A DNA stretch of 64,000 bases from an uncultured bacterium (GCA_963720265.1 CAVRET010000002.1:136704-200703); one strand, 5' to 3'. Positions 3,521 through 51,705 are shown, counted from the stretch's first letter. Notes: generated by a model not told the origin, from the sequence alone. Translations and numbers: made by a program.

Positions 3521-4240
3521 CTATTGCGGCCTATTTACAGCCGTTTGTGCCGCCTCAAACTCAAGTGAATCATCGAGCGGCTCAAGCTCAGTAACCTTCC
3601 AACGCCGCTTGAGCGCTGCAAGTATCAAAAAATCCGCCAATTTCGGATTCTTAGGTAAAACCGGACCATGTAAGTAGGTTCCAATGGCATTCCGATACCT
3701 GGCGCCTTCAAGCCGGCTTTCACTATTGTTCCCAAAGCCTTTCCTGACCTTACCCAGCGGCTGCTGGCCGGATTCAAGCTCGGTCTGGCCAGAGTGGTTC
3801 TCGAACCCAACGAGTCTGCCAAACTCGCTTTCTATCGTAACGTTGCCGATCATTCGTTTAGTACTACCGGTTGTTGCAGCCCTAAATACCGAGATTCCTG
3901 GTATATCCTGCCCCTCCAACGTAGTGAAACCCCGGCCAAACAGCTGGTATAACCCGCAGACAACCAAGGCGGGCGCATCATCATCAATCAGCGCATTCAG
4001 ATGCTCGCCCCGTACTACTAGATCCGAACCAATCAAAAGTTGGCCAGAATCTTGACCACCGCCGCCAAAAATAATGTCAACCTCGTCCCAGTCGATTTTC
4101 CGCCCCAGCTCGACAGGTCTAACGAGGGCCTCGTAGCCACGCCATTCAATGCGCTTCTGAAGAGCAATGATGTTACCCAAATCGCCATAAATATTCATTT
4201 CGCCGGGATACAGATGGGCAATTACTAATCGTTTAGTCAT
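3521..4240 (-). CDS. gatD: Lipid II isoglutaminyl synthase, glutamine amidotransferase subunit (CobQ/CobB-type GATase)
   Basis: 239 aa with a GATase-3-like core (VVCGLYQLFGRGF, conserved Cys). It overlaps the upstream Mur-ligase-like gene by 4 nt, as in murT-gatD operons. Confidence 0.65.
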   Translation of the reverse strand: MTKRLVIAHLYPGEMNIYGDLGNIIALQKRIEWRGYEALVRPVELGRKIDWDEVDIIFGGGGQDSGQLLIGSDLVVRGEHLNALIDDDAPALVVCGLYQLFGRGFTTLEGQDIPGISVFRAATTGSTKRMIGNVTIESEFGRLVGFENHSGQTELESGQQPLGKVRKGFGNNSESRLEGARYRNAIGTYLHGPVLPKNPKLADFLILAALKRRWKVTELEPLDDSLEFEAAQTAVNRPQ

Positions 4241-5613
4241 GAACCCATCTCCGGAATGTGTACTAATTTTGACAACAGTTTACGAACTTCCAGCATTGCC
4301 GTATAGGTTGGCAGTATATACAGTGACTCCCCCCTAGGAGTAAACTCAATAGCCCGATTCAGCGCTGGGCCAAGCTCCGACACCATTTCAGATTTAATAC
4401 CTGCGTAATGAAGCCTCAAACGCATGTCTGTCGCGCGCAAACCGCTCACAATAACATTTGGCTGTCCGCCGGCAAGCACCTCAATCGGCACATCCCAAAG
4501 CCAGCTGACATCGCGGCCATCGGCTGCCAGATCATTTATTGCGATTAGCACTCTTTGCTCTTTACTGCCAACAAGAAAAGTTTCTATAATTTGGCTAAAC
4601 CCAACTGGATTCTTAATGAGCAGCAAATAAATCAGGCGGCCTTTGTAGTCAATCCGCTCAACTCGGCCAAACGCTGGCGAAGTCTTGGTCAAAGTGCTAA
4701 CTGAATCGCTTAAACTAAATCCTAAGCCTTGGCTCAAGCTTAAGGCGGCCAGGGCGTTGTAAAGATTATAATTTCCCGGCAACGCCAAAGATACGCTATG
4801 ACGTTTACCGTCGATTGCTACAGTGAAATTAGTACCAAGATGATCCGACTTATCAACGGCAGTGACAACAACGCTCGGACGCGGCCGGGAAAAATGTCCC
4901 CGATTACAACGATAATGACCAAGGTGTGCATAAAACTGTCGGCTAAACGTCAGCTGCTCACCACAAATCGGGCAGCGATCCGAATCAACTACTGTATTGC
5001 CGGCATTCGCCCGGCTCACGGGCAAGCCCTCTATCCCAAAGTAGTGTACCGCTGCCGGATCGTGCGCATACTTCGCCAAACTCACAACCAAAGGGTCATC
5101 GGCGTTGAGGTAAACATCGCACTCAGTTGCAGAAATACCACGTCCTATCATCGCTGCCGTTGTATCAAGTTCACCATATCGGTCAAGCTGGTCCCGAAAC
5201 AGATTGAGTACCACAATAGCTCTCGGTTGCAATTCAGCCGCAACCTTTGGCAAACTTGCCTCATCAACCTCAAACAACGCCATGGTGTAGCCACGTAAAT
5301 GGCCCGACCAAGTTGTAGCTGAAACAAAGGCCGAGGTGATTCCCCGCTTGAGGTTTGAACCAGTATTATTGGTCAAGACCTCCTCGCCGCCGCGCTCAAA
5401 CATTGCGACAGCCATTTTGGTGGTTGTAGTCTTGCCATTTGTACCAGTAACCAAAACAATACCATGCGGTAATTTAGACCCATACTTAGCCGCCAAATGA
5501 GGATCGAGTCGGTCGGCCACCAACCCGGGAAGGGCCTGGCCACGACCGCGCCCAGTCAGTCGGCTGAGACCGGCGGCGGTCTTGCTGAAGGCAATTGTTA
5601 GACCAGCTTTCAT
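4237..5613 (-). CDS. murT: Lipid II isoglutaminyl synthase, Mur-ligase-family subunit
   Basis: 458 aa with a Mur-ligase P-loop (VTGTNGKTTTTKM) and a Cys-rich ribbon (DRCPICGEQL...HYRCNRGH) characteristic of MurT. Confidence 0.7.
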   Translation of the reverse strand: MKAGLTIAFSKTAAGLSRLTGRGRGQALPGLVADRLDPHLAAKYGSKLPHGIVLVTGTNGKTTTTKMAVAMFERGGEEVLTNNTGSNLKRGITSAFVSATTWSGHLRGYTMALFEVDEASLPKVAAELQPRAIVVLNLFRDQLDRYGELDTTAAMIGRGISATECDVYLNADDPLVVSLAKYAHDPAAVHYFGIEGLPVSRANAGNTVVDSDRCPICGEQLTFSRQFYAHLGHYRCNRGHFSRPRPSVVVTAVDKSDHLGTNFTVAIDGKRHSVSLALPGNYNLYNALAALSLSQGLGFSLSDSVSTLTKTSPAFGRVERIDYKGRLIYLLLIKNPVGFSQIIETFLVGSKEQRVLIAINDLAADGRDVSWLWDVPIEVLAGGQPNVIVSGLRATDMRLRLHYAGIKSEMVSELGPALNRAIEFTPRGESLYILPTYTAMLEVRKLLSKLVHIPEMGS

Positions 5614-42072: not shown

Positions 42073-42148
42073 GCCCCGGTAGCTCAGCGGATAGAGCGTC
42101 TCCGTCCTAAGGAGAGCGTCGGGGGTTCGATTCCCTCCCGGGGCACCA
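42073..42148 (+). tRNA. tRNA-Arg (anticodon CCT)
   Basis: GCCCCGG-TA-GCTC-AGCGGATA-GAGC-G-TCTCC-GTCCTAA-GGAGA-GCGTC-GGGGG-TTCGATT-CCCTC-CCGGGGC-A-CCA. Confidence 0.85.
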
Positions 42149-43826: not shown

Positions 43827-44078
43827 ATGAATTCTATCGATATTAGAATCTGGCCATCAGTGAGCCGTTACCCCAAGGGAGGTTGGGAACACGCCTATAC
43901 ACTGCCAGATGGCGGCAAAGGAGGTGGCGGTCATAGGAACGTAACTTTAGATCAGGCCAAATCACTTATCTCGACTACGCTCGCAGAAATGGGCTACGCG
44001 GACTATCAGCTCAACTTTATCGTTGGCGACATGGTATTTACGCCTCTAGGCGAGCACGATGATTCAGACTCTGCTTAA
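43827..44078 (+). CDS. Hypothetical protein (83 aa)
   Basis: TATAAT-like -10 at 43819-43824 and an ATG at 43827. No motif recognised. Confidence 0.3.
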   Translation: MNSIDIRIWPSVSRYPKGGWEHAYTLPDGGKGGGGHRNVTLDQAKSLISTTLAEMGYADYQLNFIVGDMVFTPLGEHDDSDSA

Positions 44079-44849
44079 CACCTCCATTACATGCTCAATC
44101 AGCTCAACCTGGAAGATACGCCGATGGTGAATTGGCAGGCGCTGGACGAGCTGGTCGATTACTGCCTTGCGGCTGTCATCTGGAACAAGAAATAGTACCT
44201 TCGGAAATACCCCGGTCTGATGCTGTTCGCGGCCTCTAGCCCAATACTTTGTGTAAGCATCAAGCTTTTGCCTCAGTTGTGGCCTGCGCTCGGTGCCCAA
44301 GTCCATCTCGATAAACCAGTAATAGGCATATTGACCAATATGCGTCTTCACATTAGCGTCCGGCCGCAGGAGCTGGCGCCCATAGACACCAACGTCCCGC
44401 CGAGGCTCAACTTGAAACGATTTAACGGTTAGCTTGTCTTCGCGCTCCAGCTCCTTTAGCCCCACGTATAACTCGGTAACGGCCAAAGCGTGACCGATAT
44501 ACTGCTCACCTGGGAGTTTCGGCGTCCTCACGGGTGATGTCCCACGACTCAGCAAGGCAATTGCCGGACGTGCCAGGGTAAGCACCATGCTAGCTGACCC
44601 GGCTCGTACACCCCCAACTTGTCGTGGTAAGCGAGTGATTATCCGTTGATCTGCCAATCGTTTAAGGATTCGAGCTGCCACACGTGTGTTACCAAGAGGG
44701 GTACCATCATATACATGAACTCGTTGTATCTGTCGGCTTGTAGCAAATCGTACTCGTAGTAGCGTCTTCAAAACTGCCAAATCACGTTCACTGAGCTCAT
44801 ATGCGTGCCTGTCTACGTAGGCGGTTATAGTACAGGATGTCATATACAT
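44064..44849 (-). CDS. Replication-relaxation family protein (plasmid/ICE-type)
   Basis: 261 aa. The N-terminal winged-helix LSERDLAVLKTLLRVRFATSRQIQRV and overall pattern resemble the Replic_Relax family of actinomycete integrative elements. The assignment is from pattern memory and is tentative. Confidence 0.45.
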   Translation of the reverse strand: MYMTSCTITAYVDRHAYELSERDLAVLKTLLRVRFATSRQIQRVHVYDGTPLGNTRVAARILKRLADQRIITRLPRQVGGVRAGSASMVLTLARPAIALLSRGTSPVRTPKLPGEQYIGHALAVTELYVGLKELEREDKLTVKSFQVEPRRDVGVYGRQLLRPDANVKTHIGQYAYYWFIEMDLGTERRPQLRQKLDAYTKYWARGREQHQTGVFPKVLFLVPDDSRKAVIDQLVQRLPIHHRRIFQVELIEHVMEVLSRV

Positions 44850-46251: not shown

Positions 46252-47745
46252 CTAGAAAACTTTGTAAGAGGCGGCGGCACGTTTGTTCTGGAGCCGAATG
46301 CTCACTTGATAGCCGTGTTTGTTAAACAGATACATCAATTGCTCGCCATTAATGAGTGTTAACGGCTTGTCTTTGGCAAAGTCTCGGGCTTCGGGACCGT
46401 AGTAGCTGGTCGTCACCAAGATTCCCTTAACCGCACCCTCATTGAGCACCGTACCGTATAAATCGCGCACTGCGCTAACTGGAACGAGGTTATTGTAGCG
46501 CTTAGCCTGAATAACGAACTTGCCACCACGTATTGGGTCTGGGTCGTAGGCAATAGCGTCGACGCCTTCGTCGCGCGACGCTTGCGTTACTTCGACTTTA
46601 GCCCCGTCATTTCCAAACTCGCGCTGGAACAAATCGCGCACTAAGATCTCAAACTGTTGCCAGTCCATACTGGCTAGGTTCTGCGAGTCATCCACCGAGT
46701 CAAGCACCGCACTGGCCTCAATAATCCGCTTATCACTGGTGTTCATCTGAAGGATAGGCTTAACCGGAGCCAAGTTCACCAGGTTGCCAGCCGATACTCC
46801 TTTGAGGTGCCGGAAACAGTCTCTCGGACTAATGTGATCAAGTTGGAGCTCTTCAAACTCACGCCTATTAACCTGCAAGCTCAGTACACAATTTCGGAAT
46901 GCCTTTCCGGTCTGCGGGTCGAATCCTGAAACGTAGCCATTGAAACCGACCGTCACGACCGCGTTGGCGTAATCGGCACTAAACACTTCATGTAATGTCC
47001 GTAAGGCTATTTGATATAAGGTCGAATTATAGAACTCCTCGAATTCGCGCTGCTTCATCTCTTTCGCAACAGAGGCATCCTTGCTCGGGGAGTAAGCGTA
47101 CTCAGTCACCCGTGGTACCCGATCGGTATTGGGTAGCTCCACCTCCACAAGCATGAGCTTACTTTGCGGCTCGTACTGCACTTGAGGAGCCAGACTTAGT
47201 GAAGACGGGTATTTTGACAGCACCAAGACGCGCTGGATGTACTTCAGGACTGCCGCAGGCGTCTTGCTCTCATAAGCGGCTTTCATCCTGTCGACTTTCT
47301 TGTTGTGCTCAACTTGCTCAGCGAGGTAAAGCTCCTTGTCTTTCTCGTAGGCCCTCTGAGCTTGGTCAAAGGCTTTCTTTGCTTCTTCTTCTGCAATCTG
47401 GTGCTTTGCTTTCATGCCAGGCACCAATCCCGAGAGCTTGGAAAAATGTGGCGCAAATTCGTCCCATTGAGGCGGCTTCTTGAACGATTCCTTATCGTAC
47501 AATTCATCCCAATTGAGCTTATTCTCGTGCAATAGCGCTGTGGCCAACAACTGCTGAAAGGCCGAGATGTCAGCTTGAGCATGCGTCGACATATTCTGGG
47601 ATTTTGCTCGACTTAGATCCTTTTCCCAACGCTTCTGCAACACCAAAAGCTTATTGGCAACCACCGCCTGGGTACTCCCAGTTACGGTTACCGTTTCACC
47701 AGTTACTGGATGAGTGACTGTTTTGTAGTAAGACATACGACTCAT
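46252..47745 (-). CDS. Fusion protein: about 330 aa domain of unknown function (coiled-coil-rich) + C-terminal Mrr-cat (PD-(D/E)xK) restriction-endonuclease-like domain
   Basis: C-terminus WQQFEILVRDLFQREFG...KVEVTQASRDEGVDAIAYDP...KFVIQAKRYNNLVPVSAVRDLYGTVLNEGAVKGILVTTSYYGPEAR follows the Mrr N-terminal catalytic-domain pattern (D...E.K in ..D..A....V.QAKRY). Confidence 0.55.
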   Translation of the reverse strand: MSRMSYYKTVTHPVTGETVTVTGSTQAVVANKLLVLQKRWEKDLSRAKSQNMSTHAQADISAFQQLLATALLHENKLNWDELYDKESFKKPPQWDEFAPHFSKLSGLVPGMKAKHQIAEEEAKKAFDQAQRAYEKDKELYLAEQVEHNKKVDRMKAAYESKTPAAVLKYIQRVLVLSKYPSSLSLAPQVQYEPQSKLMLVEVELPNTDRVPRVTEYAYSPSKDASVAKEMKQREFEEFYNSTLYQIALRTLHEVFSADYANAVVTVGFNGYVSGFDPQTGKAFRNCVLSLQVNRREFEELQLDHISPRDCFRHLKGVSAGNLVNLAPVKPILQMNTSDKRIIEASAVLDSVDDSQNLASMDWQQFEILVRDLFQREFGNDGAKVEVTQASRDEGVDAIAYDPDPIRGGKFVIQAKRYNNLVPVSAVRDLYGTVLNEGAVKGILVTTSYYGPEARDFAKDKPLTLINGEQLMYLFNKHGYQVSIRLQNKRAAASYKVF

Positions 47746-47801
47746 ATGATTACCTCACGGCTCATCATAGCAAAAATCATGCAAACGACCATAAGACCGA
47801 T

Positions 47802-48665
47802 CTACTTCACGAGCTTAATCTGTCTCGCATAATGATCAATCCAAGCAGGCATCTTGGGCTCGGCCTCGTGAAAGATGTAGTGTTTGACCTGCCTGGTTAT
47901 CTCCCACTGGTAGGCAAATACTGCCCGGCACGACCGGACCATGCCTTCAACGTCAGTTGAGCCGTCTATTGATACGTCAATCCGTTCTGGCGATTCCTTA
48001 ATTACTGAAGCCAATTCGATGGGATCAGCATGGCTGCCGCCAGAGAAGAACGGGTATAACCGATCGTATAGCCGCACCATCGTCATAGTTTTCTTGCCGA
48101 TCCGATGATACTTCTGATTATAAAAATCAATAATCTCGCAACGTTGCTTCAGGCTGAAGCCTTTAGTGCGTGTGACCGGTGTCGTCTTGGCGGGGTTTAT
48201 CACTTCCGGGATTGCATCCGGCCACTTTGGGTAATCGAGAGCCACGGTACTCTCGATGTCTAGTAGCCGATTCTTGTGTTTAGCAAAATCCTCATCGGAC
48301 ACGTGTCCGTCACTATGGAGGACGGCCAACATCTCGATTCGCTTCCGCTCGCTGGTCATAATCATATATTTGGCATAGACCAATGACCTACAGCAGTAGA
48401 TTAATCGGACATTGATCCAGATCTCGAACAACGTTCGCGCTAAGGTGTAGCTAACACGAAATTGCTTGCTGTCGGCTAAACTGGTTATCCCTTGGACTTG
48501 GGCAATCGCCGAGATAAATAGTGTTAGTAAATAGCCATCTCGACCTAGCGAGTAGACATCGATCTTGGCCTGTTCCATCTCTTTGAGGAGTACAAACCCG
48601 TAGCCATGAAGTTCCTTGAGGGCGTGGATAGCTTCAACAAGTTCACGCTCAGCATCGGTTTGCAC
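47802..48665 (-). CDS. Hypothetical protein (287 aa), middle gene of the accessory operon
   Basis: No recognisable motif. 15 nt gap to the upstream gene and 56 nt gap to the downstream gene, all on the same strand. Confidence 0.3.
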   Translation of the reverse strand: MQTDAERELVEAIHALKELHGYGFVLLKEMEQAKIDVYSLGRDGYLLTLFISAIAQVQGITSLADSKQFRVSYTLARTLFEIWINVRLIYCCRSLVYAKYMIMTSERKRIEMLAVLHSDGHVSDEDFAKHKNRLLDIESTVALDYPKWPDAIPEVINPAKTTPVTRTKGFSLKQRCEIIDFYNQKYHRIGKKTMTMVRLYDRLYPFFSGGSHADPIELASVIKESPERIDVSIDGSTDVEGMVRSCRAVFAYQWEITRQVKHYIFHEAEPKMPAWIDHYARQIKLVK

Positions 48666-48680
48666 GGCTCTGTCCCATCG

Positions 48681-50240
48681 CTAGTCTTTGGCCTTGGCGT
48701 CGGAGTCTGCCATCTCAATCAGGCGATCTGCGAAATGATTCCAGCTAATGTTATCTTCACCGACAGCGGTCTTTATCTTATTCGCCGTCGCGCGCAGTTG
48801 CTCCGGATCATCAGAGATCCATCCTAGCTTCTTAAGGAGCGCCACGGTCTGATCTTCCTGAGCCGCAGTCTTTTCGGCATATTGCTTTTCTGCCTCCTGC
48901 TCAGACCCGACTGGTGTCCACTCGGCGCCCACGCGGCTCACATGGCCAAACAGCCGCCATCGGCCAAGACCTTCTTTAAACACGGCAAAGTTAGGATTGG
49001 GATCAGCCAAGTATCCAGAGTACACCCACAGGATCACAAACTTTGCAAATAAGATCGTCTCGACATCCGGAAATAAGTCCTCAACAGTGGCCTGAACGGC
49101 CTGTTCGTTGATCTCGTTAGCATAGGCCCACAAATCCCGCACCCAAAAGAGGAACAGGTTGGCTACCGTTTTGGTAATTACCGGCCTCTCGTCCACACTG
49201 GCAACGGTTACCCGCCACTCGGCGGGGATCGCGTCCTTCAGCACATAACTGCTATCACCAGCCTTAAAGAATAGTGCCCGCATACCAGGCATCAGCAATT
49301 GGCCGATGCGGCCATCCTGGACCTTAGATAGTGGTATGGCTAACAAAACCTCACGTACGGCTTCGTCGTAGTTGTCTTCGGTAGTAAACCGTTCAATCAC
49401 AACCCGGACTACTTGGGTGGCGTGTACAAGATTACCGCCGGCATAGAATCGCTTATCAGCAAACAGCTTCTTCAGTCCACCGTCGTTCCAGCTGGCCCAG
49501 AGCGTGATTGCGTCGCACTTGCGCAAGAAGTTATACAGGATAACCCAGAATGTGTGCCTGGCCACGCCCGACTTCTTGTCCTCAGTTAGCGCCGTCATTG
49601 CCCAAGATAAGAGCTGCTTAAGCGTAGAATCTTCATCTAGCTGCAATGTCCACGGTCTAGACTCGGCTACGGAAGTGCCGTCTGACTTGGCATCGGAACT
49701 GGCAATCGTAGCGGTTACAAGCTCGCCCATGATGTCCCGTTCCGGCAATGCCGTTCCCGCGGGGCGTAGAGCTTTAAGATCGTAAACGTATATCGGCTTC
49801 TTATAGAACGATACCCAGATCACATAACCAAGAAGCCACAGCCCAAATATCAGATCTGCGTAGAAGAGTGCCGTGTGACGGCTGAAGAGCGGCAGGATGC
49901 ATGTCCCAAACAGAAAGACCACCAGGTTGCCAACTGGCTCATGGAGATACCGAAGGCGGTTCTCTCGAACCCACTCGTCGTCGAGAGGCGTCCGTTTAGC
50001 CAAATTGTGGGTCGCAAATTGCTGTCTCCAGATCTCAATGGCGATTGGGATGAACACGGCCATCACTGCCGTCGCCAACGCCAAGTAATCCACGATCTGG
50101 TCGGTGCCGATCTCAAAATGGTAACAGCCAGCACTGCCACAAACGGCCCGCCCAAACTGAACCATTAATGTATACAGAGCTACATCTGCAATCAGGGCTA
50201 GGAGCCACAAATACGGCCGCCTTTCTGGTTTCCGTTTCAT
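48681..50240 (-). CDS. Hypothetical membrane protein: 4 N-terminal TM helices + about 370 aa soluble domain
   Basis: Hydrophobic segments within the first about 150 residues. No motif recognised in the remainder. Confidence 0.35.
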   Translation of the reverse strand: MKRKPERRPYLWLLALIADVALYTLMVQFGRAVCGSAGCYHFEIGTDQIVDYLALATAVMAVFIPIAIEIWRQQFATHNLAKRTPLDDEWVRENRLRYLHEPVGNLVVFLFGTCILPLFSRHTALFYADLIFGLWLLGYVIWVSFYKKPIYVYDLKALRPAGTALPERDIMGELVTATIASSDAKSDGTSVAESRPWTLQLDEDSTLKQLLSWAMTALTEDKKSGVARHTFWVILYNFLRKCDAITLWASWNDGGLKKLFADKRFYAGGNLVHATQVVRVVIERFTTEDNYDEAVREVLLAIPLSKVQDGRIGQLLMPGMRALFFKAGDSSYVLKDAIPAEWRVTVASVDERPVITKTVANLFLFWVRDLWAYANEINEQAVQATVEDLFPDVETILFAKFVILWVYSGYLADPNPNFAVFKEGLGRWRLFGHVSRVGAEWTPVGSEQEAEKQYAEKTAAQEDQTVALLKKLGWISDDPEQLRATANKIKTAVGEDNISWNHFADRLIEMADSDAKAKD

Positions 50241-50300
50241 GCTTCCAGACTAGCACAATGAATCCTATCTGGTAACAGATAGCGATTAATTCAAGAGGCT

Positions 50301-50573
50301 TTAGCCCATAAAGCCAGCATCACGCAACCGCTTCGCCACAGTTTCGCGGTCAATACCAAACTGAAGCGCCAGAGTGTACGGAGCAATGCCGGACCGATAT
50401 GCCGCGATCAACTTATCCATATCCAGGTTCAGCAGCGCTGGGGAGCGTAGTGGCTTGCGCTTCGTGCCCTGTGTGACACAGCTCGCCGCCGTCAGTGCTG
50501 AAAGATCGTGGTGTAAGTGCTGGAGGCTCTCAAGCCTTAAATCCTCCTGAAGCTGACAGATCAGGCGCACCAA
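50301..50573 (-). CDS. Small resolvase-type HTH (HTH_7-like) DNA-binding protein, 90 aa
   Basis: MDKLIAAYRSGIAPYTLALQFGIDRETVAKRLRDAG resembles the C-terminal HTH of Hin/resolvase proteins. No catalytic domain. Confidence 0.45.
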   Translation of the reverse strand: MVRLICQLQEDLRLESLQHLHHDLSALTAASCVTQGTKRKPLRSPALLNLDMDKLIAAYRSGIAPYTLALQFGIDRETVAKRLRDAGFMG

Positions 50574-50578
50574 AAATT

Positions 50579-51172
50579 ATGAAGACCAGATTTTTACTCC
50601 ACGGCGGCAGGGTCAAACTTTCCGACGAGCGCAACGACCGGTTCTTTCGCGAGCTGGTGAAAGATCTTGCCGACGGTGACCAGGTGTTGTCGATCGGCTT
50701 TGCCCAACGCGACGAGACCGTCCGGCAGAAATACTTCGAACGGGACAAGGGCTTTCTTTTAGCGCAAACCAAAGCCGACATTAATGTTATCAATGCCACG
50801 TACGACGACTTTATTGAGCAAATTGGAGCCTCCAAGTCCGTCTACATCACCGGAGGAGACTGCCCAGAACTCGTAAAAAACATCCAGCGCTACCAAGATT
50901 TCGATTCTCTCCTGCGCGGCAAGGTAATTGGCGGAACTTCGGCCGGGGCATGTTTATTCGCAGCCTATTACCTAAATCTTCCCGAGCCCGAGGTCATGTC
51001 GGGCTTAAGCGTATTCCCAATCCGACTCATGGTCCATTATGGCAACTCTGAATTCAACTCAACAGACAAGACATTACAGGTTTTGCAGCATGCCCACCCT
51101 GAGCTAGAACTGCTTCGCCTTCGTGAGTGCGAAAGACACCCCCACGGAGCAAGCTCCGTGGTTGTCACTTAG
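50579..51172 (+). CDS. Peptidase S51 (PepE/cyanophycinase-like, class I glutamine-amidotransferase-like fold)
   Basis: Start reassigned to MKTRFLLHGG. VYITGGDCPELV and VIGGTSAGACLF (the Ser nucleophile motif GxSAG) are present. The 3' end runs into the IS200 terminal hairpin. Confidence 0.5.
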   Translation: MKTRFLLHGGRVKLSDERNDRFFRELVKDLADGDQVLSIGFAQRDETVRQKYFERDKGFLLAQTKADINVINATYDDFIEQIGASKSVYITGGDCPELVKNIQRYQDFDSLLRGKVIGGTSAGACLFAAYYLNLPEPEVMSGLSVFPIRLMVHYGNSEFNSTDKTLQVLQHAHPELELLRLRECERHPHGASSVVVT

Positions 51173-51705
51173 GGCACCAGCTTCAGTTGGTACGATTTGG
51201 CCTGAGTGGGTCGGTGCTTACCTTGTTGCTCAACATACGTCTTTATAACTCCTTCCAACGGACCGTCAGAGACGGTCCTAATGTAATAGCCGACACTCCA
51301 CATCGCACCGCCCCACAAGAACTGTTTGACTTCGGGAAACTGGACAAACAAGGCCCGTGCGCTCTTGCTTTTTAAGATCTGTACCAACTTCTCTGGCGCG
51401 ATTTTTGGATGAGCACCTATAAATACATGGACATGGTCGTCATCGGTGCCAACAGCTTCCAGCTCCCAGTCGTAAGCCTGGGCTATCTCGACAAGCACCC
51501 GCTTTAAGTATTGGCTGCGGTTGGCTAGCAGTACCTTGCGTCGAAGTTTGACACCCCATACCAAATGGTACCGAATCTGATACCGACAGTGGGCACCGAT
51601 TTGAACGTCCATACCACCATTGTGCTAATGAAAGACTGCTGTGTCCACCAGAGGCGGACAGGTGCTCGCCGGCGCTATCCCTCCCCGGAGCAAGCTCCGG
51701 GGTTC
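51136..51705. mobile_element. IS200/IS605-family element, intact
   Basis: Subterminal hairpins CCACGGAG-CAAGC-TCCGTGG (51141-51161) and CCCCGGAG-CAAGC-TCCGGGG (51683-51702) share the same loop and flank a full-length tnpA. Confidence 0.6.
51169..51612 (-). CDS. tnpA: IS200-family transposase TnpA (Y1 HUH)
   Basis: 147 aa with YHLVWGVKLRRKVL, the HUH motif HVHVFI, and a C-terminal catalytic Tyr region (WSVGYYIRTVSDG). Confidence 0.8.
   Translation of the reverse strand: MDVQIGAHCRYQIRYHLVWGVKLRRKVLLANRSQYLKRVLVEIAQAYDWELEAVGTDDDHVHVFIGAHPKIAPEKLVQILKSKSARALFVQFPEVKQFLWGGAMWSVGYYIRTVSDGPLEGVIKTYVEQQGKHRPTQAKSYQLKLVP

Follow-up and report, generated by a model that had tools for sequence, protein, structure and literature searches.

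Do four closely spaced genes on a mobile island, all read in the same direction, have to act together? The question is raised by positions 46252–50573 of a 64,000 nt DNA segment from an uncultured bacterium (GCA_963720265.1, CAVRET010000002.1:136704-200703), the whole of which is referred to here as the window. This 4.3 kb stretch encodes, in order along the minus strand, an open reading frame (ORF) of 90 aa, a 519 aa membrane protein with four transmembrane (TM) helices (hereafter the TM protein), a 287 aa protein of the DUF5677 family and a 497 aa Mrr-family nuclease, with intergenic gaps of 60, 15 and 56 nt. An initial annotation, made by a model from the sequence alone, had read these genes as an operon and a candidate novel defence system. 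Comparison with related loci leads us to a different conclusion, which we hold with a probability of about 80 %: the stretch is a patchwork of independent cargo, carried by an island of ~9.5 kb next to a tRNA-Arg gene and made up of an ordinary solo nuclease, a small ORF of doubtful status and a rare but conserved pair of genes for the TM and DUF5677 proteins.

Distribution of the four genes across related loci

The same genes were called independently on a 9 kb metagenome contig of identical sequence (L006), and the co-directional arrangement with gaps of 15–60 nt was borne out as annotated. That the genes form an operon is not established: a scan for promoters and terminators gave no signal above that of shuffled sequence, and the comparative data divide the four genes into separate units. 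Hidden Markov models (HMMs) of the TM-protein and DUF5677 families had no match, even at E≤10, in four independent loci carrying a homologue of the nuclease, and the reciprocal scan found no Mrr-family nuclease in any of ten independent TM/DUF5677 loci. In these 4+10 loci, then, the nuclease never co-occurs with the other genes of the stretch, and the 90 aa ORF is unique to this locus. Of the three larger genes, those for the TM and DUF5677 proteins are truly linked and that for the nuclease is not.

The nuclease

The C-terminal domain of the 497 aa protein is of the Mrr PD-(D/E)xK type, as had been annotated. Mrr_cat (PF04471) matches residues 357–473 (E=4.5e-30; 104.6 bits against a cutoff of 21) over profile positions 1–114 of 115, and the VDAIA...IQAKRY motif pointed out earlier is present. 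Residues E366, D396, Q413 and K415 (E...D...QxK) are invariant in an alignment of 23 homologues with 39–79 % identity, and comparison by hhalign with EcoKMrr of Escherichia coli aligned the catalytic domain only (Mrr residues 154–293, probability 97.4 %), with the FE..., GxD and QAKR motifs in register. The catalytic residues, whose conservation the initial annotation had left as a point to be checked, are thus kept.

The N-terminal region of ~340 aa contains a coiled-coil stretch (residues ~100–170) followed by a conserved domain, and residues N148, Y169, P180, P205, Y239, R249, H252 and E253 of this region are invariant among the same 23 homologues. Neither Mrr_N nor any other Pfam family matched residues 1–350, a profile search of PDB sequences found no relative of the N-terminal region among solved structures, and literature searches on the subfamily returned nothing specific. 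The region had been considered unassignable, yet it belongs to a catalogued family: the PADLOC model mREase_IV (PDLC03663) matches protein residues 113–477 (E=2.1e-65) over profile positions 165–526 of 544 and takes in most of it. A homologue search yielded 7,660 relatives of the nuclease which, among the matches listed, are of ~500 aa with a query coverage of mostly 97–100 %, are found in Patescibacteria, Bacilli, Anaerolineales and other hosts and, where named, are called restriction endonucleases. What had been seen as a novel fusion is an existing, widespread architecture, whose family-specific N-terminal region is retained in thousands of homologues, and by way of the catalogued Type IV model the nuclease falls within a well-described system. 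The enzyme resembles Mrr and other Type IV enzymes in having a C-terminal domain homologous to EcoKMrr residues 154–293, in its long match to a Type IV model and in being encoded by a single gene, whereas its N-terminal ~340 residues are unrelated to the N-terminal domain of EcoKMrr; we therefore regard it as a member of a distinct subfamily and not as an EcoKMrr orthologue.

Relatives of the nuclease gene are found in very different company. A homologue of 79 % identity lies between a gene for a pyridoxal-dependent decarboxylase and an HTH_20 gene, one of 56 % identity lies 11 nt after rpsJ, a homologue on a Pseudochrobactrum plasmid adjoins genes for LexA/Cro-type repressors, and another, on a Xanthomonas plasmid, stands between a DEAD-box helicase gene and an NYN gene. 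No methyltransferase gene adjoins the nuclease gene in the window or in four independent homologous loci. Because these solo relatives occur in unlike neighbourhoods lacking TM and DUF5677 genes, the nuclease appears to be autonomous, and judging from its sequence we predict that the 497 aa protein is a self-sufficient, single-gene restriction endonuclease of the Mrr family, an ordinary solo enzyme of Type IV-like character. In such an enzyme the target would be chosen by the N-terminal region and cleaved by the C-terminal Mrr_cat domain; by analogy with Type IV enzymes, this target is probably foreign DNA that carries modifications. At the locus of the 56 %-identical homologue (L003, 7660–9524; also L004), ~6 kb of unrelated genes part rpsJ, the gene for ribosomal protein S10, from rplC, so that this homologue lies inside a split S10 ribosomal operon.

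The TM protein and its DUF5677 partner

The four N-terminal TM helices reported for the 519 aa protein were recovered both by Kyte–Doolittle hydropathy (residues 9–30, 48–72, 101–121 and 123–146) and in an AlphaFold2 (AF2) model. Built on an 11-sequence alignment, the model describes an all-helical TM protein in which the four helices are followed by a helical-repeat domain of ~370 aa (predicted local distance difference test score, pLDDT, 80.9; predicted template modelling score, pTM, 0.72). Strongly basic sequence is found at the N-terminus (MKRKPERR) and in the second loop, and a conserved Cys pair in the first (alignment A1). Under the positive-inside rule, these basic segments put the N-terminus on the cytoplasmic side, together with the large domain; the cytoplasmic location of the helical-repeat domain is thus our own inference and not the output of a prediction tool. 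The TM protein had no match in Pfam, NCBIfam, PHROGs or PADLOC, a profile search of PDB sequences returned nothing meaningful for its family, and viral contigs scanned for the TM and DUF5677 families yielded no relatives. The possibility that the TM protein is an ORFan, in keeping with a word-indexed homologue search in which it matched only itself, was considered and rejected: an exhaustive HMMER search of 1.84 billion representatives gave 18 relatives of 31–57 % identity (19 sequences with the query).

The 287 aa protein had been said to carry no recognizable motif. This proved wrong, since Pfam DUF5677 (PF18928) matches its residues 45–225 with 38 bits against a cutoff of 27.1. Residues S52, L63, R77, E81, D180, Y200, Y204 and H212 are invariant (alignment A2), and the protein is predicted to be all-helical and cytoplasmic, the helical model itself being unreliable. 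A profile search of PDB sequences gave nothing meaningful for the DUF5677 family, and the subfamily found in the window had no match in a plasmid collection.

The association of the two genes is repeated elsewhere. In three related loci a Pfam DUF5677 gene comes right after the TM gene, the junction varying from a gap of 11 nt to an overlap of 8 nt: in L009 (P0125, 41 % identity) the gene for a 530 aa TM protein is succeeded 11 nt on (5 nt by ORF coordinates) by one for a DUF5677 protein of 272/274 aa; in L014 (P0127, 39 %; TM protein of 527 aa) the DUF5677 gene begins on the final base of the TM gene; and in L015 (P0128, 38 %; 526 aa) the two genes overlap by 8 nt. A fourth locus, L018 (P0137, 34 %), has an apparent partner on the other side, where a gene for 352 aa precedes the TM gene by 40 nt; the top Pfam match of its product is DUF5677, at a sub-threshold level (E=0.0018, 18.8 bits), and it aligns with the invariant D...Y...Y...SH motif of that family. 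On the contig of P0126 (40 %) the end of the TM gene is overlapped by an unclassified gene for 239 aa. In an all-against-all comparison the remaining neighbours were dissimilar except for TerS-like proteins and serine recombinases; among the latter, those of L014 and L020 are 36.5 % identical, and other pairs match only weakly. As the other neighbours are unrelated between loci, the adjacency of the TM and DUF5677 genes does not stem from shared ancestry of a larger block, and an adjacency that is kept amid a changing background is the signature of a functional pair. A large serine recombinase gene lies within 1–6 kb of the TM gene in the window and in L014, L015 and L020, the TM homologue in the last of these being unpaired. 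Across the TM-linked loci the DUF5677 partners have diverged to 17–24 % identity, compared with 36–41 % for the TM proteins. We conclude that the genes for the 519 aa and 287 aa proteins are a translationally coupled, conserved two-gene cassette that recurs on serine-recombinase islands.

DUF5677 is the more promiscuous half of this pair. The closest relatives of the DUF5677 protein of the window, of 49 and 44 % identity, adjoin no TM-family gene, and one of the two comes after an unrelated soluble protein. The 44 %-identical homologue (P0123; L007, 944–3281) has an additional N-terminal region of ~160 aa and is encoded downstream of a Macro-domain protein (E=2.4e-5), which suggests that DUF5677 combines with varied partners.

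The surroundings of the TM homologues are varied. L014 (7–3638) and L015 (449–3403) each encode a large serine recombinase and a small TerS-like protein (Terminase_2) that is 71 % identical between the two islands, and the layout of these islands is reminiscent of phage satellites. Directly upstream of the pair in L015, an ORF (4204–4779) containing the motif RNVLAH (Rx4H, HEPN-like), with no match in Pfam or PADLOC, could be another defence-type gene on that island. In L012 (647–8283; metagenome-assembled genome DBS1-1.bin53) a TM homologue of 29 % identity is followed, 118 nt downstream, by a complete and co-directional set of Type I genes, hsdM/hsdS/hsdR. The neighbours of the TM homologue in L013 and in L019/L020 are unrelated. 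PADLOC scans of neighbouring genes in the related loci gave noise only.

Possible function of the pair

A rare membrane-protein family that is repeatedly coupled to DUF5677, a recombinase-enriched domain, invites speculation as to what the two proteins do. A defence role for the pair seems to us possible, at somewhat less than even odds. Our working proposal, advanced tentatively, is that the TM and DUF5677 proteins form an undescribed two-gene anti-phage system of serine-recombinase islands and satellite-like elements, so that DUF5677 expressed by itself would lack its membrane partner, which would account for the absence of reported protection in spite of the strong enrichment of this domain beside serine recombinases. 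The helical-repeat domain of the TM protein would dock DUF5677 at the inner face of the membrane, with DUF5677 (conserved residues R, E, D, Y, Y and H) as a sensing or catalytic partner and the membrane protein as an anchor or effector, and the complex may act as a membrane-associated module for phage exclusion or abortive infection. Were this so, DUF5677 would gain both a function and a required partner, and a new membrane-associated system would be added to those of small integrative islands; if the pair has no part in defence, the region is routine island cargo.

In its layout the pair calls to mind two known systems. Kiwa consists of a multi-pass membrane protein, KwaA, and a soluble DUF4868 protein, KwaB, in a two-gene arrangement on small islands. 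The likeness is confined to the order of a gene for a 4-TM protein and a gene for a soluble protein of ~250–300 aa with a domain of unknown function, while the TM protein of the window bears an extra helical-repeat domain of ~370 aa that KwaA does not have. Membership of Kiwa was rejected, there being no PADLOC match at E≤1, and the resemblance is an architectural analogy only. RexA/RexB of phage lambda similarly combine a 4-TM membrane protein with a soluble partner of ~280 aa on a mobile element, with a gene order opposite to that of the pair; homology was rejected here too, the probabilities given by hhalign being 0.2 % for DUF5677 against RexA and 0.5 % for the TM family against RexB.

In a 2025 preprint, DUF5677 is listed as one of the domains most enriched beside serine recombinases in Bacillota (P=1.98e-92, n=25; bioRxiv 10.1101/2025.10.07.681051). 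The pair lies within 1–6 kb of a large serine recombinase gene in the window, L014 and L015, and in this respect resembles the 'RADS' contigs of that preprint. The experiment described there differs from the situation considered here in that a DUF5677 ORF of Bacillota was tried singly and the membrane partner fell outside the analysis (bioRxiv 10.1101/2025.10.07.681051). That no protection was reported for DUF5677 alone is compatible with a need for a partner and does not prove it.

How far do the data favour a composite stretch, with a self-contained pair, over other explanations? The view that all four genes form one novel defence system, with a helix-turn-helix (HTH) regulator, a membrane component, a sensor and a nuclease effector, gains from their common direction, their short gaps, the lack of a convincing terminator between them and their shared position on a mobile island, but it is very hard to reconcile with the reciprocal scans (0/4 nuclease loci with TM or DUF5677; 0/10 TM/DUF5677 loci with an Mrr nuclease), with a nuclease that belongs in full to a huge family of solo enzymes and has its own N-terminal domain, and with an HTH ORF that has a sub-threshold HTH signal and no homologue in related loci. 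We consider it highly improbable. As to the combination of domains that had been put forward as new, the nuclease is already catalogued and the TM and DUF5677 pair alone keeps its potential for novelty. Variable effectors are frequent in known defence families, and the pair might on that pattern be the sensor or scaffold core of a three-gene system with a swappable downstream effector. Co-directional genes do come after the pair: that for the Mrr nuclease follows it after 56 nt in the window, that for an unknown protein of 263 aa after 5 nt in L009 (ORF coordinates), those for proteins of 229 and 91 aa after 42 nt on the P0126 contig, and that for a glyoxalase/VOC protein after 165 nt in L014. 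These third genes are, however, mutually dissimilar, and none matches PADLOC; a glyoxalase does not readily suggest an effector, the nuclease family stands alone elsewhere and has a large N-terminal domain of its own, and in two of the four cases the gap before the third gene is longer than the TM–DUF5677 junction. A swappable effector is for these reasons improbable, if not to the same degree as a four-gene system.

Another explanation keeps the pair intact and takes it out of defence altogether, so that it would serve island maintenance or addiction in the manner of a toxin–antitoxin pair, transfer, or host physiology, its link with restriction genes being coincidental. No known defence model matches either protein, restriction genes are adjacent in only 2 of ~10 loci, DUF5677 alone is without reported protection, and the genes are always near recombination, replication or TerS-like genes of small islands, all of which would suit a non-defence function. 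On the other hand, the cargo of serine-recombinase islands and of satellites is a documented reservoir of defence genes (bioRxiv 10.1101/2025.10.07.681051; PMC9122126), and the TM family is rare, fast-evolving and patchy, with a divergence of its partners (17–24 % identity, against 36–40 % for the TM proteins) that we take to be typical of conflict genes. A non-defence role is in our view possible, though less likely than not.

Several observations weigh against the interpretation preferred here. The sample comprises ~10 loci, most of them on short contigs. More distant TM homologues (29–31 % identity; L012, L013 and L019/L020) have no detectable DUF5677 neighbour, and as the closest relatives of the DUF5677 protein (44–49 % identity) have other upstream partners, the pairing is not obligate. 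A fold search with the good model of the TM protein returned generic helical-repeat neighbours only, the AF2 model of DUF5677 is poor (pLDDT 50.5 from a three-sequence input), and no structural homology points to an activity of either protein. No PADLOC model, that of Kiwa included, matches any of 11 TM-family or 6 DUF5677 members at E≤1, and of nine ORFs five are reported as protective, the DUF5677 ORF, which was expressed alone in Enterococcus faecalis, not being one of them (bioRxiv 10.1101/2025.10.07.681051). With regard to the nuclease, its putative modification dependence is taken from a database label, and the gap of 56 nt that parts it from the pair has no predicted terminator, so that it may be co-transcribed with the pair in this genome.

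The 90 aa ORF

The first ORF of the stretch had been annotated as a resolvase-type HTH protein. HTH_7 matches it only at a sub-threshold level (E=0.11; 13 bits against a cutoff of 23.8), the HTH-like signal being weak and C-terminal; there is no family match at E 0.1 and no homologue in the related loci. In the region 50495–50581 its TTG start is 6 nt from the ATG (50579) of a divergent peptidase S51 gene, and the ORF overlaps a longer, GTG-start version of the peptidase S51 ORF by 79 nt, which leaves no intergenic space for a promoter. An internal ATG at 50421 would give only an HTH-like peptide of 39 aa. As the TTG start abuts the start of the peptidase S51 gene, both the true length of the 90 aa ORF and its status as a gene are uncertain; it is locus-specific, may represent a regulator or a remnant, and is to be grouped neither with the nuclease nor with the pair.

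The island and its other genes

The flanks named in the initial annotation, a tRNA-anchored serine recombinase and an IS200 element, were confirmed by coordinates and Pfam matches (Table 1), and its description of the genes as accessory cargo on an integrative element is supported. GC content is ~0.51 over 42.1–51.7 kb and rises to 0.53 on the left side and 0.56 on the right.

Table 1. Genes of the 4.3 kb stretch and further features of the island (positions counted from the first nucleotide of the window)
Feature	Position	Strand	Start codon	Evidence
tRNA-Arg(CCT), left anchor of the island	42073-42148	+		ARAGORN; Rfam 60.9 bits
Large serine recombinase, 551 aa	42084-43739	-		Pfam Resolvase, Recombinase, Zn_ribbon_recom
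Replic_Relax protein, island replication or mobilization function	44064-44849	-		Pfam E 3e-31; PHROG 'replication initiation by nicking' E 9e-23
Orphan protein, 300 aa, N-terminal glycine-zipper membrane segment	45342-46244	+		Weak Gly-zipper matches; hydropathy
Mrr-family (Type IV-like) restriction endonuclease (predicted), 497 aa	47745-46252	-	ATG	
DUF5677 (PF18928) protein, 287 aa, second of the conserved pair	48665-47802	-	GTG	
Membrane protein, 519 aa, first of the conserved pair	50240-48681	-	ATG	
Doubtful ORF, 90 aa	50573-50301	-	TTG	
IS200-type Y1 transposase, close to the right-hand end of the lower-GC island	51169-51612	-		Pfam Y1_Tnp E 6.5e-33

The final ~21 codons of the serine recombinase ORF (...LVPREGIEPPTLSLGRRRSIR*) are antisense to the tRNA-Arg(CCT) gene (42084–42148); the reading frame runs through the tRNA gene, so that the attachment-site tRNA codes for the C-terminal tail of the recombinase. 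A search further to the right for a direct repeat of att type, matching the end of the tRNA gene, was negative, as is expected with a serine recombinase, and the right boundary of the island is accordingly placed from the GC content and the IS200 element only. Rfam and tandem-repeat scans of the island found the tRNA alone and no retron- or ToxI-like RNA.

The 300 aa orphan protein has a soluble domain of ~230 aa with no family match and is a further item of island cargo; its gene converges on that of the nuclease, the stop codons of the two being 7 nt apart. At the other end of the island the IS200 transposase gene is flanked by GC-rich palindromic hairpins of 25 nt (51139–51163 and 51680–51704), which are 88 % identical to each other and look like ends of the IS200/IS605 type.

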